DNA of 64,000 nucleotides, taken from the NCBI GenBank assembly GCA_029982205.1, contig JARRCM010000009.1:2042-66041 (forward strand), read 5' to 3'. Below, in pieces: positions 7,409 to 16,760 of the stretch. Origin of the DNA: Thermosediminibacterales bacterium (lineage in GTDB: Bacteria > Bacillota > Thermosediminibacteria > Koleobacterales > JARRCM01). The position numbers and the translations under genes are program-made. Position 1 is the stretch's first letter. Every line of letters begins with the position of its first letter. The notes under the pieces are model-generated. The model saw only the letters and a program-made list of their open reading frames with translations, ran no database searches and was not told the DNA's origin.

Positions 7409-8725
7409 TCATGTTGTTATGGATTTGTAAATAGGAGCATAAACTCCTCTATCCCTGATAACACAACCTGTCGTGCCTCCCCTTCGCATGATTTCGGTAC
7501 ACTTGCTGCAGGCAATACAGCACTTTCTCCTTTCCATTGCTCCGTGTAATAAAATATCTTTTGGGAAATCGGGATATGCAAATGCCTGTCGGCCAAAACC
7601 TGCGATTCTGAACCAACCTGCCTCAATACCTCCTGCTGCAATAAGTGCTGCAAATTCGCGCAACCAACTGAAACCGGTAGCAATGATTGATACTTCAGGA
7701 ACACTTTTCTGTATATCCCTTGCGGTTTGCAATAATCTAAGCACTCCCATAAGAGGATGCTCGGGAGAGGAATAACCACCGGTATCAAAGGGTCTACCTA
7801 TATGAGGGTTGTAGTAAGGGTTGCCGCAAGTTATATTAATCAGCTTAACTCCTTTTTCTTTAAGAAGCTCGACCAGCTTAATAGGTTCAGCAAGATCGGG
7901 TTTGGAATCATCTTCAGCATCAACTCCCCATCCATAGGGATATGGAATAGCATCATAAGCATTAAGCCTTACTGCAATATCAATTGAATCACCTAAACGG
8001 GTTTTGATTTTGTCTACTATATTCAGAAGAAACCTTGTTCTGTTTTCAAAGCTTCCACCGTATTCCCCGTTTCTTGTATGAGCAGACAGAAGTTCTGATA
8101 TAAGGTACCTGTGACAGCTCTTGATATCTACTGCATCAAATCCTATTTTCTGGGCAAGCACTGCGGCCTCTACAAAACGGTCTTCTAGTTGCTTTAGTTC
8201 ATCATCTGTTATTATCCTGTAATGGAGTGATGATTTGTCGAGATATGGGTTTTCTGCAGCTATTATTGGAGCGGGTTTGCCTTCCGGTTTACTGTAACGT
8301 CCAGAATGGGTTAACTGCAGCACAGTATAAGGTCTGTAATCAGATCCAAATTCCTCCTGTGAAGTACTGATTATTAAGTCATATAATCTGGAAAATGCCT
8401 CTACATTCTGTCGACAGAGAAACAGCTGCCTGGGATTGGCTCTCCCTTCCGGAACAATAGCTGTAGCCTCAATCCATATAAGGCCGGCACCTCCTCTTGC
8501 CATTCTTTCATATCTTCTGTAAGTTAATTTATCAGGTTTTCCATCTTTTGTCCCATCACATCCCTCCATAGGATGAATGGATAAAGCATTAGGTATGGTT
8601 TTGCCTCCTAAATGTACAGGCTGTTCTAAGATTTTTAAATCATATGAAACAGGCAGTTCAAAACCTGCGGAATTTATCTCATCCAACAAATCAGTGATAG
8701 ATTCATAATTAAACTTCATCTTCAT
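7409..8725 (-). CDS. NADH:flavin oxidoreductase (Old Yellow Enzyme-like) with C-terminal Cys cluster
   Basis: HPMEG, GGAGLIWIEA, QLTHSGR, GFDAVDIKSCHRYL, YGGSFENR, CIACSKC...GC. Confidence 0.88.
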   Translation of the reverse strand: MKMKFNYESITDLLDEINSAGFELPVSYDLKILEQPVHLGGKTIPNALSIHPMEGCDGTKDGKPDKLTYRRYERMARGGAGLIWIEATAIVPEGRANPRQLFLCRQNVEAFSRLYDLIISTSQEEFGSDYRPYTVLQLTHSGRYSKPEGKPAPIIAAENPYLDKSSLHYRIITDDELKQLEDRFVEAAVLAQKIGFDAVDIKSCHRYLISELLSAHTRNGEYGGSFENRTRFLLNIVDKIKTRLGDSIDIAVRLNAYDAIPYPYGWGVDAEDDSKPDLAEPIKLVELLKEKGVKLINITCGNPYYNPHIGRPFDTGGYSSPEHPLMGVLRLLQTARDIQKSVPEVSIIATGFSWLREFAALIAAGGIEAGWFRIAGFGRQAFAYPDFPKDILLHGAMERRKCCIACSKCTEIMRRGGTTGCVIRDRGVYAPIYKSITT

Positions 8726-8750
8726 TTATAGGCTCCTTTCCAAGGCTTTC

Positions 8751-8764
8751 TGTAAACGTTTGCA
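8751..8764. promoter_or_regulatory. LacI-type operator (proximal)
   Basis: TGTAAACGTTTGCA, fits TGnAAnCGnTTnCA, upstream of operon containing a LacI gene. Confidence 0.65.
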
Positions 8765-8913
8765 TAAAATTGCAAAATAAAAAAATCACAAATTTCTATA
8801 GTGAAAATTTATATGAATAGACATAATAACTGATAATAAGCCGATATCAAGCTCTTATGTATACTTTCTCCAAAAATTTCAAAACCAACACAAAAACTTT
8901 TCTAAATATTTTA

Positions 8914-8927
8914 TGGGAACGTTTTCA
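8914..8927. promoter_or_regulatory. LacI/cre-type operator (distal)
   Basis: TGGGAACGTTTTCA with flanking A/T pair; same AACGTT core as the 8751 site. Confidence 0.55.
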
Positions 8928-9016
8928 TAGATAAATATTCTACATGTGTTTGAAAAATCCTGCTAAATTTTTAAAAATTTTTTATATGAAAATAAATTTA
9001 GTTCAAAATTCGTAAA

Positions 9017-9050
9017 CAAAAAGCAGGATTGGACTACATTCCATCCTGCT
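9017..9050 (-). terminator. Intrinsic terminator of nrd operon
   Basis: AGCAGGAT...ATCCTGCT stem followed by T tract on minus strand. Confidence 0.7.
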
Positions 9051-9060
9051 CGTTTTATAA

Positions 9061-11361
9061 CTATCCACATTTAGAATACCCGCATGAGCGGCACACAATA
9101 CACCCACCTTCATGTTCAATAACACCCCCACACTCAGGGCATCTGGTTTTAAAACTTAAATCTTCAGCTAAGCAGCCTGTTTCATCTTCAGAGGGGTAAA
9201 TCTTGCTCATGAGTTCGCGGTTACCACCATTCCCATTAGAAATATTAATTTTTTCTCCTATACAGCGTTCAATAGCCCTTCCAATAGCATCAGGGCAAGA
9301 TAAAACTTTGAGCCCTTTTTTTCTGATGGTAGAGTGGCATCTGATTCCCTTCAGCTGTTCTACTATTGATTTGACTTCGATTCCCGAGCGCAGGGCAAGA
9401 GATATCAGTCTGCTCGTGGCCTCCGACTGCGAAGGGCAGCCTCCGGCACGTCCGAGGTTTGTAAACACTTCACATATACCTTTTTCATCTGAATTTACTG
9501 TTATGTATAGATTGCCGCAACCTATCTTAACCTTTTCTGTATTGCCATATGTTATATTAGGCCTGGGACGGGGAGTTAGTTTTCCGCTTCCGCCTTCCTG
9601 TTTGGGAGGATCATTTTCTCCTTGTTTTTGAGCCAGACCTTTGTTCAAAACCTGTTCCTCACGGCTGCCGTCACGGTAAATGGTAACCCCCTTACAGCCC
9701 AGCTTATAAGCCATCAGATAAACCTTTTTCACATCTTCTTTTGTGGCTTCATTCGGGAAGTTTACCGTTTTTGATACGGCATTATCGGTATACTTCTGAA
9801 ACGCTGCCTGAATCCTTATGTGCCATTCCGGTTCCACATCATGTGCAGTTACAAAAACTTTTTTAATGTCTTCCGGGATAAAGTCTATGTCTTTTAATGA
9901 ACCTCTTTCCGCAACTTTCCTCAGAAGTTCATCGCTGTAAAATCCCCGTTCTTTAGCTGTTTCTTGAAAAATCGGATGAACCTCAACAAGCCTGTCGTTA
10001 TCCATTACATGACGTTCAAAAGCCAGGGCAAACACAGGTTCAATCCCGCTGCTGGCCCCACATATAATGCTGATGCTTCCTGTTGGGGCTATAGTTGTTG
10101 TTGTGGCATTCCTCAACTTCATTCCGCCGGGTCTATCAAAGATACTTCCTTCAAAGTTCGGAAATGTTCCCCTTTCAATTGCAAGACTTTCAGATGCTTT
10201 TTTGGATTCACAGTTTATAAACTTCATTATCTCTTCTGCGGTTGTTACTGCAGCTTCAGAGTTATAAGGGATACCCAGGCGAATAAGCATGTCCGCAAAG
10301 CCCATAACTCCAAGGCCTATTTTCCGGTTCGCTTTTGTTTTTTCTTCTATAATTTTTAACGGGTATTTATTTACATCGATAACATTATCAAGAAACCTCA
10401 CCGCAAGGTGCACGGTTTTCTTCAATTTTTCGTAATCTACAGCCCATCTGCTGCTGTTTTGTTCTTTTTTAACCATTTTTGAAAGGTTTATCGACCCAAG
10501 GTTGCATGACTCATAGGGCAATAAAGGCTGTTCCCCGCATGGGTTAGTGCTTTCAATCTGCCCGTCTTTTGGTGTAGGATTAAATTCATTCATGCGGTCG
10601 ATGAAAATAATCCCAGGCTCGCCGTTTTTCCAGGCCATTTCCACTATAAGATTAAAGACCTCCCGGGCGTTTAGGCTGCCGGTTATCTTTTTCGTATGAG
10701 GATCAATAAGGTTATAGTCTTTGTTTTCTTCAACAGCCTTCATAAACTCATCTGTTAGCGCCACGCTTATATTAAAATTGGTGATATCTTTATTGTCCCT
10801 TTTACACCTGATAAACTCCAGTATGTCGGGGTGGTCTACCCGCAGGATGCCCATGTTGGCACCCCTTCGCGTACCGCCCTGTTTCACAGCTTCGGTGGCC
10901 GAGTTGAAAACTTTCATAAATGATATGGGGCCCGAGGCTACCCCACCTGTTGACCTTACCGTAGAGCCCTTAGGCCTAAGCCTTGAAAAACTAAAACCTG
11001 TTCCGCCCCCGCTTTTATGGATAAGAGCAGCTTGTTTGATTGCGTCAAATATGCCTTCCATTGAGTCTTCCACAGGAAGCACAAAACATGCGGAAAGCTG
11101 CCCAAGCTCCCTTCCCGCATTCATCAAAGTAGGAGAGTTGGGCATAAACTCCAGTCTTGTCATCATTCCGTAAAACTCTTCTTCTATCCTTTTTACATCA
11201 GCATTTTTATCATAATTCAGTTCAGCCTGTGCTATTGTTTTTGCCACCCTTCGAAACATGTCTTCAGGTTTTTCAACAAGCCTGCCGTCTTCATCTTTTT
11301 TCAGGTATCGCCTCTCTAAAACTTTAACCGCATTTTCTGTTAATTTCAGTTTTTTCTCCAT
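9061..11361 (-). CDS. nrdJ: Class II (AdoCbl-dependent) ribonucleotide reductase with fused TSCPD and Zn-ribbon domains
   Basis: [51 protein letters not shown]; ATG at 11361 follows RBS GAGGTG. Confidence 0.95.
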
Positions 11362-11373
11362 TAACAGCACCTC

Positions 11374-12063
11374 TTATCTTATTATAGATTCCAAAACATA
11401 GTTTTTTAAAACTCTTTTTAAATACATGAATTCTTTATCAGAATATGTTGTTTTAGAAACAAAATCGCTATCTAGCGTCTTTGTAGGAACAAATTTTTGA
11501 AGAACATACCTTTCAGCACCTTTTATGATTTTTGCTATTTGTATTATATCATTCAAATCAAGCATAGATTTTATTACAGTTGTTCTAAACTCATAATCTA
11601 ATCCCGAATCCATAATCAATTTTATGCTCTGTTTGATTTTTCCAGGGTCAACACTACTTCTTGCGATTTCTTTATATTTTTCTAACGGAGCTTTTATGTC
11701 CATAGCAAAATAATCTATAGTTCTTGATTCAATCAACTTATTAATCGTTTCCGGATTGCTCCCATTCGAATCCAGTTTGACAAGATACCCCATATCCTTA
11801 ATACGCTCAATAAAATCAATTAAATCGGTTTGAAGTGTTGGTTCACCACCTGTTACAACAACAGCATCAAGTTTCCCCTTACGACTCTTTAAAAATCCGA
11901 AAACTTCTTCATTGCATAAAGGTTCCTCAAAAAAATCAGGATTAACAAGCTCCGGGTTATGACAATAAGGACACCTGAAATTGCATCCCTGTGTAAACAC
12001 AACAGCGCTGATTTTACCCGGATAATCTATTAGTGAGAACTTCTGTAAGCCTCCAATATTCAT
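11374..12063 (-). CDS. nrdG: Anaerobic RNR activating enzyme (radical SAM)
   Basis: GCNFRCPYCHN CX3CX2C, TGGEP; ATGA overlap with nrdD. Confidence 0.95.
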   Translation of the reverse strand: MNIGGLQKFSLIDYPGKISAVVFTQGCNFRCPYCHNPELVNPDFFEEPLCNEEVFGFLKSRKGKLDAVVVTGGEPTLQTDLIDFIERIKDMGYLVKLDSNGSNPETINKLIESRTIDYFAMDIKAPLEKYKEIARSSVDPGKIKQSIKLIMDSGLDYEFRTTVIKSMLDLNDIIQIAKIIKGAERYVLQKFVPTKTLDSDFVSKTTYSDKEFMYLKRVLKNYVLESIIR

Positions 12064-14156
12064 AATCCCTTAACCTCAAAAGTTTTTCTCAGTTTAAACT
12101 CCTCTTTTTTACCTTTGTTCCATTGATTAACAGGTCTCAGATAACCCACCACACGTGAATAGACTTCACACACAGACCCACATCTTGGACATTTGCTGTG
12201 TTCTCCTGATAAATAGCCATGAGCGGGACAAACGCTAAATGTAGGTGTTAATGTAAAGTAGGGCAGACGGTAGTTTTCACAAATTTTTTTAATCAAATTT
12301 TTAACTGAGTCCCTATTATTTATTTGCTCACCTAAAAAGATATGCATCACAGTACCGCTTGTGTATTTTGTCTGTATTTCGTCCTGCAGATCCAAAGCTT
12401 CAAACACATCATCGGTAAAATTGACAGGAAGCTGGCTGGAATTTGTATAAAACGGTTCTGCGCCTTTTTTGTATTCCTCTTCATTTGCACAAACTATTTC
12501 AGAGAATTTATCTTTATCTATTCTTGCGAGCCTGTAAGACGTCCCTTCAGCCGGAGTGGCTTCGAGATTATAGTTGTTTCCGGTTTCCTCCTGGAACTCA
12601 AGCAGTTTATCCCTCATAAAGTCTAAAACCTTAAGGGTAAAAGCCCTTGATTTTTCTGAAGCAATATTTTCCCCAAACATGTTTAAACAGGCCTCATTCA
12701 TTCCAACCAAACCCAGTGTAGAAAAATGGTTTTTCCAGTATTCATTAAAACGTTTTTTAATATCCCTCAGATAGTATTTGGCATATGGATAAAGGTCTTC
12801 ACCGGTATACTTTTCAAGGACCTTTCTTTTTATCTCAAGACTGCTTTTTGCCAGAACCATAAGTTTTTCTAATCTGTCAAAGAAATCGGCCTCATCTTTG
12901 GCAAGGTATCCAAGCCTTGGCATGTTAATCGTAACCACACCAATAGAACCGGTCAAAGGATTCGCTCCAAAAAGACCTCCTCCCCTCTTCTTCAATTCCC
13001 TTGTATCGAGGCGGAGACGGCAGCACATTGACCTTGCATCTTCAGGGCTCATGTCTGAATTTATGAAATTAGAAAAGTAGGGGATACCGTATTTGGCCGT
13101 CACTTCCCAGAGAATATCCAGATTGTGGTTTTCCCAGTCAAACTCATTAGTTATGTTGTAAGTTGGTATGGGGAAGGTGAAAACCCTTCCTTTAGCGTCT
13201 CCTTCCAGCATTACTTCCAGAAACGCCTTGTTGAGCATGTCCATCTCTTTCTGAAACTCTTTATACGTTTCCTTTTGCTGTCTGCCTCCGATTACTACAG
13301 GCTGATCAGCAAGATATCCAGGAACAGTAAGGTCAAATGTGACATTTGTAAAAGGCGTCTGAAATCCAACCCTTGTGGGGACATTCAGATTAAAAACAAA
13401 TTCCTGCAGAGCCTGTTTGACATCTCTAAACCCAAGACCGTCATATCTTATGAAAGGGGCAAGATATGTGTCAAAGTTGCTGAAAGCCTGAGCACCGGCA
13501 GCCTCACCCTGAAGCGTATAAAAGAAATTGACTATTTGACCAAGTGCGCTGCGAAAATGTTTTGCAGGTTTGCTTTCTACCTTTCCGGGCACTCCTTTAA
13601 AACCCTCTACCAGCAGGTCATAAAGGTCCCATCCTACACAGTAGACAGAAAGAATGTTCAAATCGTGAATATGTAAATCCCCGTTCACGTGAGCCTGTCT
13701 GATTTCAGGCGGATAGATTTTGTTCAACCAGTAAATTTTACTTGTTTCTGAAGAAATATAATTGTTTAACCCCTGTAAAGAAAAATTCATATTGCTGTTT
13801 TCATTAACCTGCCAGTCAAGCTGTTTCAGATATTGGTCTATCAGGTCAATCCCTGCCTTGGCTGTAATTTCTCTTATCTTTGCATGCTGCTCTCGATAAA
13901 TAATATACGCTTTTGCAGTCCTTCGATAAGGAGAAGACAAAAGGACTTCTTCTACTATGTCCTGAATCTCTTCAACCGTGGGAATTTGCTGCCCGAAATA
14001 TTTTTCAGCCAAATTTAAAACCTTAATAGTAAGCCTTTTCGCAATATGACAGTCAAATTCCCCCGTTGCCGCACCGGCCTTCGCAATCGCATTCGTAATT
14101 TTCTCAGCATCAAACTCGGTTATTCTGCCATCTCTTTTTTTAATAGTTTTGAACAT
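12060..14156 (-). CDS. nrdD: Class III anaerobic ribonucleoside-triphosphate reductase with ATP cone
   Basis: N-terminal KKRDG...FD.EKI ATP cone, SMCCRL, EATPAEG, glycyl radical YSRVVGYLRP. Confidence 0.96.
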   Translation of the reverse strand: MFKTIKKRDGRITEFDAEKITNAIAKAGAATGEFDCHIAKRLTIKVLNLAEKYFGQQIPTVEEIQDIVEEVLLSSPYRRTAKAYIIYREQHAKIREITAKAGIDLIDQYLKQLDWQVNENSNMNFSLQGLNNYISSETSKIYWLNKIYPPEIRQAHVNGDLHIHDLNILSVYCVGWDLYDLLVEGFKGVPGKVESKPAKHFRSALGQIVNFFYTLQGEAAGAQAFSNFDTYLAPFIRYDGLGFRDVKQALQEFVFNLNVPTRVGFQTPFTNVTFDLTVPGYLADQPVVIGGRQQKETYKEFQKEMDMLNKAFLEVMLEGDAKGRVFTFPIPTYNITNEFDWENHNLDILWEVTAKYGIPYFSNFINSDMSPEDARSMCCRLRLDTRELKKRGGGLFGANPLTGSIGVVTINMPRLGYLAKDEADFFDRLEKLMVLAKSSLEIKRKVLEKYTGEDLYPYAKYYLRDIKKRFNEYWKNHFSTLGLVGMNEACLNMFGENIASEKSRAFTLKVLDFMRDKLLEFQEETGNNYNLEATPAEGTSYRLARIDKDKFSEIVCANEEEYKKGAEPFYTNSSQLPVNFTDDVFEALDLQDEIQTKYTSGTVMHIFLGEQINNRDSVKNLIKKICENYRLPYFTLTPTFSVCPAHGYLSGEHSKCPRCGSVCEVYSRVVGYLRPVNQWNKGKKEEFKLRKTFEVKGL

Positions 14157-14216
14157 GATACTTCTCTCCTTTAATTACTGTTTCATTTAAATCTTCCTGA
14201 CAAACTATATTTTAGT

Positions 14217-14471
14217 TTATAAATCGGATATATAAAAATATTCTTTAGTATTTTTATAATCACTATCTAATTTATAGCAAAACACTTCATCAAAGTTAGT
14301 ATTTTTAAGGTATTGATTATTATCTAAAAGATTTTTAAAAGCTTCCTTTGCGTTTACACCAGAAGAAAAACCAATTACTTGTAAATTCTCAATATCTGGT
14401 AAAATAGATTCTGAATTAGGTTGAAAAGTATATCCTTCGGTTGTCAAAAATATATAGTAATTTATATCCAC
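14217..14471 (-). CDS. Hypothetical 84-aa protein coupled to the PLD-wH nuclease
   Basis: GTG start with RBS GGGAGG inside the upstream gene, 10-nt overlap, AT-rich like its partner. Confidence 0.7.
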   Translation of the reverse strand: MDINYYIFLTTEGYTFQPNSESILPDIENLQVIGFSSGVNAKEAFKNLLDNNQYLKNTNFDEVFCYKLDSDYKNTKEYFYISDL

Positions 14472-15271
14472 AGCTTTTTGTACCTCCCTTTACCTAAAAA
14501 TTTTATTAATCCCATATCTCTTAGGAATTGTAATTGCTGACGGATTTTGGCTTCTATGTTATGGTTTTCCGGGTAAATTTTTTGTAAATCTGGCTTATAT
14601 TTATAAACATCACTTAATTCAAAGACAAATTTGTTAATTTTATTTAATTGATTAAATATTGCAAGTTTCCACCCTGAAAGACTTTTTTTTATTGATTCTA
14701 TACCTCCAGTAAATAAATCATCTTGATAAACCTCCTCATCTTGAAAGCCTATTAAATTTATTTCTGGAAGTTTAATTTTCTTTTCTTGAGGTATATTATT
14801 TAGAATTCTATCAATGGTTTCAATAATTTCATTTGTAATTTCTCCACTTAATTCACTCTGATAAATCAAATCAAAATCTTCACATACTTTCTTAACCAAA
14901 TTCGGCTCATCTGAAAGTATTCCATATTCATAGTTTTTAGTTAAACCAGAATTAGTAAGGTTAGCTGAGGTTATAACAACAGATCTTTCATCAAAAATAT
15001 ATATTTTCGCATGCAAATTTTGATAATTCTTTATTCTTCCATTTTTCTCTAAAATATAACGCATAGCCTCAAGGTCAGAAGCTCGTTTATAAAAATGTGC
15101 AATATTAAAATTAGTAATTAAATCAAAATTAACTTTTTTACTTTTATATTTGAAAATCTTTTTTAAAACCTTATATTTGACAAATGGAGAACATATTTTG
15201 ATACTGTTTTTAGTTTCGAAAACATATTGAAGAAATTTATTTTCCCATGGTTTATTAATTATTTCTATCAT
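14462..15271 (-). CDS. PLD-family (HKD) nuclease fused to DpnI-type winged-helix domain; putative m6A-dependent type IV restriction enzyme
   Basis: LHAKIYIFD...TSANLT (HxKx4Dx6xSxN); C-terminal YPENHNIEAKIRQQLQFLRDMGLIKFLGKGRY resembles DpnI/DRP wH signature. Confidence 0.82.
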   Translation of the reverse strand: MIEIINKPWENKFLQYVFETKNSIKICSPFVKYKVLKKIFKYKSKKVNFDLITNFNIAHFYKRASDLEAMRYILEKNGRIKNYQNLHAKIYIFDERSVVITSANLTNSGLTKNYEYGILSDEPNLVKKVCEDFDLIYQSELSGEITNEIIETIDRILNNIPQEKKIKLPEINLIGFQDEEVYQDDLFTGGIESIKKSLSGWKLAIFNQLNKINKFVFELSDVYKYKPDLQKIYPENHNIEAKIRQQLQFLRDMGLIKFLGKGRYKKLWI

Positions 15272-15323
15272 TTTCTTCACCCTTTTATATAATTACTTGA
15301 TAATACTCATATTTAATTGTTAA

Positions 15324-15339
15324 ATCCCATATATAGTAA
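15324..15339. promoter_or_regulatory. NrdR box 2
   Basis: ATCCCATATATAGTAA (rc TTACTATATATGGGAT) vs consensus acaCwAtATaTwGtgt; 32 bp from box 1. Confidence 0.75.
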
Positions 15340-15347
15340 CCAATTTT

Positions 15348-15376
15348 ATTATAATACTCAATATATAGTATGTCCA
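15348..15376 (-). promoter_or_regulatory. sigmaA promoter of PLD-wH/nrdDGJ transcript
   Basis: TGGACA-N17-TATAAT on minus strand. Confidence 0.75.
15356..15371. promoter_or_regulatory. NrdR box 1
   Basis: ACTCAATATATAGTAT, near-consensus; lies in promoter spacer. Confidence 0.82.
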
Positions 15377-15459
15377 ACTCTTGTTTGGTAGATATTCTCT
15401 TTAATAAGTTAATATATCTTTTTTTTCCTCCAAATTACTTTCAGTAATTTATTTATAAG

Positions 15460-15485
15460 AATAACAGCCCCAAAGGGCTGTTATT
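15460..15485 (-). terminator. Terminator-like hairpin after DUF4015 gene
   Basis: AATAACAGCCC-caaa-GGGCTGTTATT 11-bp stem. Confidence 0.7.
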
Positions 15486-15527
15486 GTTCTGTTCTTTACA
15501 TTTTTTACAAAGAATTGCACTAATATA

Positions 15528-16760
15528 TCATTCGCTTCGTTCCTCTTCAATCCCTAAAGTGTTCATGGCCTCAAGTTTTTCAGTTGTAGTTTGTTTTTTT
15601 TCCAACGCCCCCACAGTATAGTAATTGCTTGGATTCCATAAAATCCACTCTTTAAGACCGGTATCATAAACTGCCTTGATCTGTGCTTTCACTTCTTTCA
15701 CACCATAAGGATAACCCAGAGAAAAATCCTGGAGCCATGGTCTTATTATTGCTTTATTGTTATCCATCTTGTTTAAACGCCTTACAGCATGACTCAGGCT
15801 TGCATAAACGGTTTCATAAGGAGATGCATTTGGATTTGGTATCCCGTAAGAACCCATAGCATAATGAGAAGGATACACCATCGGACATATATAGTCAACT
15901 ACTTCTGCGATATCTTCTAATACCTGACCGATATTGAGGTCATCTGAAGCTGAAGTGACAAGACCGAAAACGTCTGCAGAAACATATACTCCCCGCGGGT
16001 TTAAACGGCTTCGGGCATATTCCAAAAACCTTTTAATCACTTTGGATTTCGGTTCATCTGTGATTTTATCATATACAATGTTTTTCAGGTTTCCGTCTGA
16101 CGGAAACCTTACATAATCAAACTGAATTTCTTTAAATCCCAGTTTTGCCGCTTCTTCAGCCAATTTTATATTGTATTCCCAAACTTCTTTTAAATAAGGA
16201 TTGACCCATCCTTTCCCTTTATAATCAGTCCACACTCTGCCATCTTTAGTTTTCACTGCCCACTCTGGCTTGTTTTTTGCTAATATTGGATCTTTAAACA
16301 CAACTATTCGTGCAATAGAATATATGTGATTTTCTTCTAGTATCCTTAAAATCTCTTTAATATCATTTATTTTAGCAGAAACCGCATTTATGTCTTTAGC
16401 CTGCTGCACCTGGGTATTGAAAGTCACTTGTCCTGTAGCATCTTTGATATCTATCACCATAGAATTAAGCTCTGTTGATTTCACAAGATCCACCAATTCA
16501 AAAAAACGTTTTCGATTTCCCGCGCTCCAACCTGTCAGATAAATACCCTTTACTTCCACAGGTTTCCATACTGGTTTCACCTTCTCAAAGGGCTGAATGA
16601 AAAAGTCATCTATACTTTTGTTTTTTTTCTCAGTGTAAACCTCGTCACTAACCGAAACATCATCCTGATATGCAGGGATTGATTTGTCACAGGCTGTTAG
16701 TACCATTGATACTATTATTAATGTAATTATAAAAAAAATGTTTTGCCTCTTTTCCCTCAA
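15528..16760 (-). CDS. Putative glycoside hydrolase lipoprotein (DUF4015-like)
   Basis: Lipobox LTAC; KGIYLT, VIDIKD, ARIVVFKD, EIQFDYVRFP, SADVFG, PMVYPSHY, RPWLQDF. Confidence 0.8.
   Translation of the reverse strand: MREKRQNIFFIITLIIVSMVLTACDKSIPAYQDDVSVSDEVYTEKKNKSIDDFFIQPFEKVKPVWKPVEVKGIYLTGWSAGNRKRFFELVDLVKSTELNSMVIDIKDATGQVTFNTQVQQAKDINAVSAKINDIKEILRILEENHIYSIARIVVFKDPILAKNKPEWAVKTKDGRVWTDYKGKGWVNPYLKEVWEYNIKLAEEAAKLGFKEIQFDYVRFPSDGNLKNIVYDKITDEPKSKVIKRFLEYARSRLNPRGVYVSADVFGLVTSASDDLNIGQVLEDIAEVVDYICPMVYPSHYAMGSYGIPNPNASPYETVYASLSHAVRRLNKMDNNKAIIRPWLQDFSLGYPYGVKEVKAQIKAVYDTGLKEWILWNPSNYYTVGALEKKQTTTEKLEAMNTLGIEEERSE

Follow-up and report, generated by a model that had tools for sequence, protein, structure and literature searches.

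A foreign PLD–winged-helix nuclease cassette lies between a predicted NrdR operator and the ribonucleotide reductase genes of a subsurface Thermosediminibacterales bacterium

The window analysed here is a stretch of 64,000 nucleotides (nt) from a Thermosediminibacterales bacterium, a subsurface organism represented by a metagenome bin of 1,905,103 bases that is 86% complete. It contains, on its minus strand, the ribonucleotide reductase (RNR) genes nrdD, nrdG and nrdJ, and the element studied is a two-gene cassette located in front of them. Read along the minus strand, the locus consists of a likely terminator hairpin, a promoter with two boxes for the repressor NrdR, a gene encoding a PLD nuclease domain fused to a winged helix (PLD-wH), an open reading frame (ORF) of 84 amino acids (aa), a spacer of 60 bp and then nrdD-nrdG-nrdJ (Table 1). 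The original prediction, made from the letters alone, had placed the nuclease gene and the small ORF as the first genes behind the promoter, and this order was borne out by domain matches and by the coordinates, all of which were re-checked on the sequence. nrdD and nrdJ were the sole RNR catalytic genes found in the bin. The parts of this locus are known, and their arrangement is new.

Passages of PMC12051234 describe the usual NrdR site as two 16-bp boxes separated by a 15-16-bp spacer and overlapping the RNA polymerase site; in the same passages, NrdR binds the operator when carrying dATP plus ATP and lets go of DNA with ATP alone. The promoter of the present locus is formed by the hexamers TGGACA (15376-15371) and TATAAT (15353-15348) with a 17-nt spacer. 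Compared with the 16-mer consensus ACACWATATATWGTGT, NrdR box 1 (ATACTATATATTGAGT) differs at 2 positions and box 2 (TTACTATATATGGGAT) at 5, only the left half of box 2 being good. The proposed layout, in which the box starts are 32 bp apart, box 1 lying between the -35 and -10 hexamers and box 2 shortly after them, was confirmed to the coordinate and leaves a 16-bp spacer between the boxes. Boxes with at most 2 mismatches occurred 3 times in the whole genome (1,905,103 bases). Two pairs passed the genome filter, and only this one had a spacing of 30-33 bp with summed mismatches of at most 8, the other one being spaced by 21 bp on contig C39. The genome also encodes nrdR (TIGR00244, 212.1 bits for a cut-off of 124.65), and a scan of 24 relatives' loci with the same consensus detected boxes before nrdD in 9; in L016 and L017, two boxes 31 bp apart abut the ribosome-binding site. 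Since nrdR is present, the box pair is unique and the arrangement fits the published site design, we accepted the site as a convincing predicted NrdR operator. As in NrdR-operated nrdDG promoters such as that of Listeria monocytogenes (PMC12051234), a 16-bp spacer separates the two 16-bp boxes, which overlap the polymerase site. The first start codon of the present locus lies 52 nt past box 2, for 13 to 157 bp given in that paper for RNR genes. The unusual feature of the locus is that an RNR gene does not come first behind the operator: unlike in those promoters, restriction genes take the first two places and nrdD follows 1.1 kb further on.

Several minor features were recorded around this operator. 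The remaining two single NrdR-like boxes with 2 mismatches are at G000:C36:13506 and G000:C40:35765. In five loci from relatives (L021-L025), a near-perfect box with 3 mismatches (L021) or 1 mismatch (L022-L025) lies about 330 nt before nrdD, and the sequence between this box and nrdD resembles, by eye, a cobalamin riboswitch. The leader between box 2 and the PLD-wH start contains a five-codon mini-ORF (MSIIK, then stop) at 15293-15310. The 11-mer TTACTATATAT, which has copies at 15339-15329 and 14460-14450, was considered as a target duplication or as a third NrdR box; its second copy is coding (N-Y-Y-I) and different in the related genome G001, so both ideas were dropped.

The nuclease was identified, as had been proposed, as a fusion of a PLD domain to a DpnI-type winged helix. 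The PLD domain matched PF13091 (PLDc_2) and PF00614 (2.6e-05), and the winged helix matched PF17726 (DpnI_C) and the PADLOC profile mREase_II (1.4e-18), the PADLOC matches being to DrmC-type PLD nucleases and methyl-directed type II enzymes. Residues 175-257 of the DpnI structure 4esj aligned with the winged helix over 81 residues (E 1.6e-15). Thus the winged helix is like that of DpnI of Streptococcus pneumoniae (PDB 4esj, 4kyw), whereas the catalytic domain is PLD here and PD-(D/E)XK in DpnI. A database search recovered 345 homologues at E up to 0.001, with the PLDc_2 plus DpnI_C architecture in all 120 among the matches listed, and H87, K89, S102 and N104 were invariant in 30 homologues, D94 being kept in at least 90%. 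No PLD-wH match covering at least 80% of the length was found in 50,697 phage or 72,556 plasmid records. The class was named PLD-wH in PMC11037411 (Front Microbiol 2024), parts of which describe two members, Aba4572I and CbaI, with the same N-terminal PLD/HKD nuclease, C-terminal DpnI-type winged helix and length of about 260-270 aa. In those parts both enzymes are Dam-dependently toxic in E. coli, their expression and purification failed and no in vitro activity was obtained; their genes adjoin methyltransferase or restriction genes and not RNR genes, and a ‘hypothetical protein’ gene is listed directly after each of them. On PLD-wH this paper makes no link to NrdR and names no small partner, ‘DpnD’ and ‘small ORF’ each occurring 0 times in its text. 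The common winged-helix domain, and this domain only, suggests by analogy that the present enzyme would read N6-methyladenine, as in Gm6ATC. Elsewhere, in two unrelated loci, AAA_14/DUF4143 ATPase genes lie just 3' of PLD-wH genes (L060:7209-8639 and L062:9365-12459). At L064:6791-7081, a further PLD-wH gene shares its last 11 nt with a 96-aa ORF that does not match AF_1447 and may be a different small partner.

The small ORF was assigned to PF27350, named AF_1447 in Pfam 38.1. This assignment was made by precomputed labels, carried by all 120 among the homologues listed, and not by a direct model match; Atlas clusters with 100% PF27350 label gave a score of 0.96. Homologues numbered 164 and were typically about 60% identical across phyla. 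In the gene call of one source, the ORF starts at TTG and encodes 76 aa. The 10-nt overlap between the nuclease end and the small ORF is repeated in G001, a genome of the same order and another family, and in L060, a locus from a Deferribacteres bin, which belongs to another phylum. A hidden Markov model of AF_1447 found 58 ORFs in 128 loci. Among the 27 upstream neighbours scanned, DpnI plus DpnI_C was the commonest type (10), 8 belonged to one 260-aa family without Pfam match, and the others included a type I R subunit, Schlafen-type helicases, TdeIII, a D12 methyltransferase and Fic. The small ORFs thus lie directly behind restriction nucleases of several unrelated catalytic types (L126-L171, L048-L121), and in one natural fusion (P0241) the 260-aa neighbour family (57% identity, 1e-94) is joined to AF_1447. 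Judging by these neighbourhoods, the small ORF is a genuine and conserved partner of restriction nucleases, among them the DpnI-type and PLD-wH enzymes, and is once fused to one of them. This partnership is the useful and new by-product of the analysis, and the partner may explain the failed production of lone PLD-wH enzymes in E. coli. In pneumococci, too, the DpnI cassette includes a second, small gene, dpnD, which belongs to the DpnD/PcfM family. The 84-aa ORF had no match at E 0.01 in a Pfam copy that lacks PF27350, and it was not detectably DpnD/PcfM.

The AlphaFold2 model of the small protein had a pLDDT of 87, and no solved fold could be assigned to it, the best Foldseek hit against the PDB having an E of 0.44 and the best VIA-align Z being 4.5 among 48,161 chains. 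Sequence searches of the PDB with P0246, a longer or fused form of AF_1447, and with the L126-type neighbour gave no match. A prediction of the complex between PLD-wH and the small protein scored 0.00, which has no bearing either way. The small protein matched none of the 50,697 phage and 72,556 plasmid records, and the literature search on AF1447 and PF27350 returned unrelated papers only. The UniRef name of P0246 begins ‘Antirestriction prote...’. In G127 the small ORF is flanked by an HNH-like gene on one side and by HIT- and McrB-like genes on the other, all three being judged by eye from motifs.

Table 1. Features of the locus in the order of the minus strand; positions are those of the window.
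Feature	Positions	Strand	Basis
DUF4015 putative glycosyl hydrolase, upstream gene outside the operon	15528..16760	-	Pfam PF13200, 6e-125
Hairpin 3' of the DUF4015 gene, likely terminator	15460..15485	-	11-pair stem; fold -21.1 kcal/mol, z -3.41, 0/200 shuffles as stable
Sigma-70-type promoter, TGGACA-17-TATAAT	15348..15376	-	11/12 matches, top site in 13800-15800
NrdR box 1 (predicted), in promoter spacer	15356..15371	-	2 mismatches to consensus
NrdR box 2 (predicted), about +3 to +18 of the inferred transcript	15324..15339	-	5 mismatches to consensus; 16 bp between the boxes
PLD-wH nuclease, 269 aa, one HKD nuclease domain and DpnI-type winged helix	14462..15271	-	PLDc_2 8.9e-17, DpnI_C 3e-25
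84-aa partner ORF, PF27350 (AF_1447), GTG start	14217..14471	-	10-nt overlap with nuclease end
Spacer before nrdD, 60 bp, with nrdD ribosome-binding site	14157..14216	-	no terminator-like site
Strain-variable block: hairpin, promoter, both NrdR boxes, both cassette genes, most of spacer	14170..15521	.	GC 24.8%; X6/X7 contig breaks
nrdD, class III RNR with ATP-cone	12060..14156	-	PF13597 6.6e-205, PF03477 9e-22
nrdG, radical-SAM activase	11374..12063	-	PF04055 1.6e-21, PF13353
nrdJ, class II RNR	9061..11370	-	PF02867 2.8e-148, TSCPD; sole PF02867 match of the genome

The cassette had been described as a horizontally acquired, AT-rich module, and this description held. Its guanine-plus-cytosine (GC) content is 25.0%, for 37.7 ± 4.0% in the genome, a value within the bottom 0.18% of 9293 genome windows, and the copies in G001 and L060 are likewise 9-12 GC points under their own flanks. 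In G001 the overlapping gene pair (66% and 80% identity) lacks NrdR boxes and sits between a binding-protein gene and a dehydrogenase-like gene, nrdD being on a different contig. Beyond the ends of the two ORFs, the window and G001 no longer resemble each other, the flanks giving an alignment score of 22 for a null of 22.0 ± 3.1. The idea of a promoter carried by the cassette itself was rejected: the window and G001 promoters were aligned with MAFFT, and their local alignment score equalled that of shuffles. Locus L125 is the same as G001 and was left out as an independent case. Of 400 other genomes from the phylum, a single one carried AF_1447. By its composition, its second location and the limits of its similarity, the cassette is a foreign, horizontally acquired module.

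Sequencing runs from other samples revealed that the cassette is also strain-variable. Four runs from a single study, which may be where this DNA came from, contained 99-100% of the words sampled from the window, and run X5, from another study, gave a 231-nt contig identical to 14681-14911. Runs X6 and X7, from two other studies (P3 and P4), gave contigs that leave the window. A 4912-nt contig of X6 had 50 differences over 11300-14169 (98.3% alike), followed by 1586 letters unlike the window, and the match of a 276-nt contig of X7 ended at the same base, 14169/14170. On the other side, an X6 contig across the DUF4015 gene was unlike the window from 15522. The little or absent cover of X6 and X7 over 14170-15500 was given no weight alone, the conclusion resting on the contigs that diverge from the window. 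From these breaks it follows that strains 98-99% identical in nrdD have another sequence from the stop codon of DUF4015 to the ribosome-binding site of nrdD. The original prediction had stated that an insertion found in one strain only would suggest accident rather than adaptation, and this is largely what the contigs showed.

Recurrence of the link to nrd genes was looked for in 131 related loci (84 from genomes and 47 from metagenomes, 1.07 Mb in total). A search for NrdR boxes and nrd neighbours at PLD-wH homologues had been suggested as a check, and recurrence was not found there: the box pair preceded the nuclease in 0 of the 131 loci, and a single cassette, that of L060, was directly beside an nrd gene. 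In tblastn with NrdD, NrdG and NrdJ of the window, 3 of the 84 genome loci matched (L060, L108 and L072) and none of the 47 metagenome loci; in L108 the match is an NrdJ-like gene of 32% identity at a distance of 3 kb, and in L072 an NrdG-like gene of 29% identity. By our own estimate, two RNR loci per about 1 Mb is roughly the expectation for random genome sequence. In L060 the cassette is placed after nrdJ, the order in L060:2975-6645 being a TTGACA...TTTAAT promoter with an NrdR box in its spacer, nrdJ (64% identical to that of the window), 102 nt with stable hairpins and no T-run terminator, the PLD-wH gene and, overlapping it, an AF_1447 ORF. A full-length PLD-wH was found in none of 30 genomes related to that of L060. 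Single NrdR-like boxes in L062 and L064 were rejected as links to nrd, since they precede an AAA_14 ATPase gene and a DinG-type helicase gene, respectively.

The methylation capacity of the host was also surveyed. The genome encodes two full N6_N4 methyltransferases and one N6_Mtase, and a methyltransferase-nuclease-methyltransferase locus is present at G000:C39:9500-12700 (L192:2502-5700), the nuclease of which has weak matches to DpnII (28 bits) and BanI (26 bits). Genome-wide, no four-base palindrome among the 16 is more depleted than GATC, the observed/expected ratio of which is 0.47. If the host methylated the adenines of GATC, the PLD-wH enzyme would be directed against self.

For transcription across the locus, the 60 bp before nrdD had been predicted to hold neither terminator nor promoter. 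The first part stood, as no terminator-like site was found by scan in 14157-14216 and the fold was unremarkable (-8.4 kcal/mol, z +0.9, 163 of 200 shuffles as stable). The second did not, since a weak promoter-like site, TTTATA-16-TAAAAT with 9/12 matches, lies at 14236-14209 just before nrdD. Other promoter-like sites in the cassette (14832-14795 and 14664-14637) had 9-10/12 matches, and the region contained 13 such sites for 10.9 ± 3.5 in shuffles, that is, no excess. No NrdR box with at most 4 mismatches was found in the 450 nt before nrdD, and an Rfam scan detected no riboswitch or other element in 8700-15700. The RNA run X8 gave contigs over pieces of nrdD only, and its sample, which is that of X7, has the other allele. 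The hairpin at 15460-15485 is likely to shield the nrd promoter from upstream transcription. With these as the sole RNR genes, no nearer box, no terminator, stable fold or riboswitch in between and internal sites at shuffle level, co-transcription is the simplest reading, and the cassette and RNR genes are probably co-transcribed from the NrdR promoter. As the module is placed behind this promoter and ahead of the only RNR operon, and no terminator intervenes, it is likely to be under NrdR control by position.

Taken together, these results lead us to favour, with a confidence slightly better than even, a reading in which a foreign type IV module landed in the RNR leader and became coupled to NrdR as a by-product. 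The module would comprise a horizontally acquired, strain-variable pair of genes, a PLD-wH reader of N6-methyladenine and a translationally coupled AF_1447 partner, situated in the leader of the genome's single RNR operon, behind a sigma-70 promoter with an NrdR operator. Transcripts from this promoter would most likely traverse both cassette genes into nrdD-nrdG-nrdJ, and with such read-through the nuclease would be repressed by dATP/ATP-loaded NrdR and expressed along with RNR. The coupling would be a consequence of the landing site, tolerated because the cassette leaves RNR expression running. Several points weigh against this reading. Box 2 is weak, and the variable block takes in the promoter and the operator, which a simple insertion behind a native promoter does not predict. 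The promoter-like sites inside the cassette could allow separate starts, and the amino-methyltransferases of the host could render a reader of N6-methyladenine self-toxic. Finally, L060 is a second nrd-adjacent case among about 9 PLD-wH plus AF_1447 pairs, which hints, post hoc, that the link may be non-random.

The best surviving alternative, which we consider improbable, is that the cassette, nrdD or both use promoters within the AT-rich insert, so that the NrdR operator would govern only part of the locus, or none of the RNR genes. It draws on four gene-strand promoter-like sites inside the cassette, including the one just before nrdD, the -10-like hexamer of which is overlapped by a palindrome. 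These internal sites, however, have 9-10/12 matches for 11/12 upstream and are no commoner than in shuffles, and nrdDGJ would then be left without NrdR box although nrdR has been kept. The palindrome itself (AAACTAAAATATAGTTT, 14218-14202) is an AT palindrome of 17 nt that begins in the stop codon of the small ORF; minus one base, it would be 3 mismatches from an NrdR box.

Distinctly less probable is the adaptive capture that the original prediction had put forward, by which induction at falling dATP, as in phage replication, improves defence while the essential operon guards the module from loss. The module does stand directly behind the only NrdR operator of the genome, a second cassette in another phylum lies beside an nrdJ preceded by an NrdR box, and the release of DNA by NrdR with ATP alone (in the passages of PMC12051234) would permit such induction. 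Evolved capture of the promoter was nevertheless not supported by the comparisons, as near-identical strains from two other studies differ in sequence there, the box pair recurred in none of the related loci, one cassette alone was nrd-adjacent, the G001 copy is at a non-nrd locus and full-length PLD-wH was found in none of the 30 relatives of the L060 genome. Protection from loss by the essential operon likewise found no support. On general grounds, a restriction enzyme has to be in place ahead of infection, and the promoters of RNR genes work in every growing cell, so NrdR control would mean growth-coupled expression and not a phage alarm. Accident is thus more likely than design, and an evolved defence circuit that senses deoxynucleoside triphosphates (dNTPs) is not the best reading.

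We also considered, as a still more doubtful conjecture, that nrd operons are a preferred functional home of such cassettes, with at least 2 entries in different phyla, restriction of methylated phage DNA tied to the dATP/ATP sensor and AF_1447 as an obligatory partner. If true, this would be the first NrdR-regulated defence system: in agreement with the statement that no such restriction system had been described, literature searches found no paper linking NrdR to restriction or defence, a Halomonas paper mentioning nrdR only as an editing target.

Least probable of all is a silent or conflicted, transient passenger whose nuclease is inactive or restrained by the small protein or low expression in a host that methylates its own adenines: the methyltransferase genes and the C39 locus with its weak DpnII/BanI matches, the rarity of GATC and the strain variability of the block would suit it, but both ORFs are intact, the residues of the HKD motif are kept, and the bin, which is a metagenome assembly, may mix strains, so that the cassette and the methyltransferase locus could derive from different ones.

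Under the favoured reading of an accidental landing, the leader of an essential operon is able to accept 1.1 kb of foreign genes, and, if co-transcribed, the cassette would represent a natural restriction nuclease whose level tracks the dNTP-sensing repressor NrdR. Free-standing homing endonuclease genes are hosted by the nrd genes of phage T4. Those enzymes are HNH or GIY-YIG homing endonucleases found in phages, whereas the present gene is carried by a bacterial chromosome, is predicted to encode a restriction nuclease that reads methylation and gives no sign of homing; in both cases a selfish nuclease gene is lodged in a highly expressed nrd cluster.

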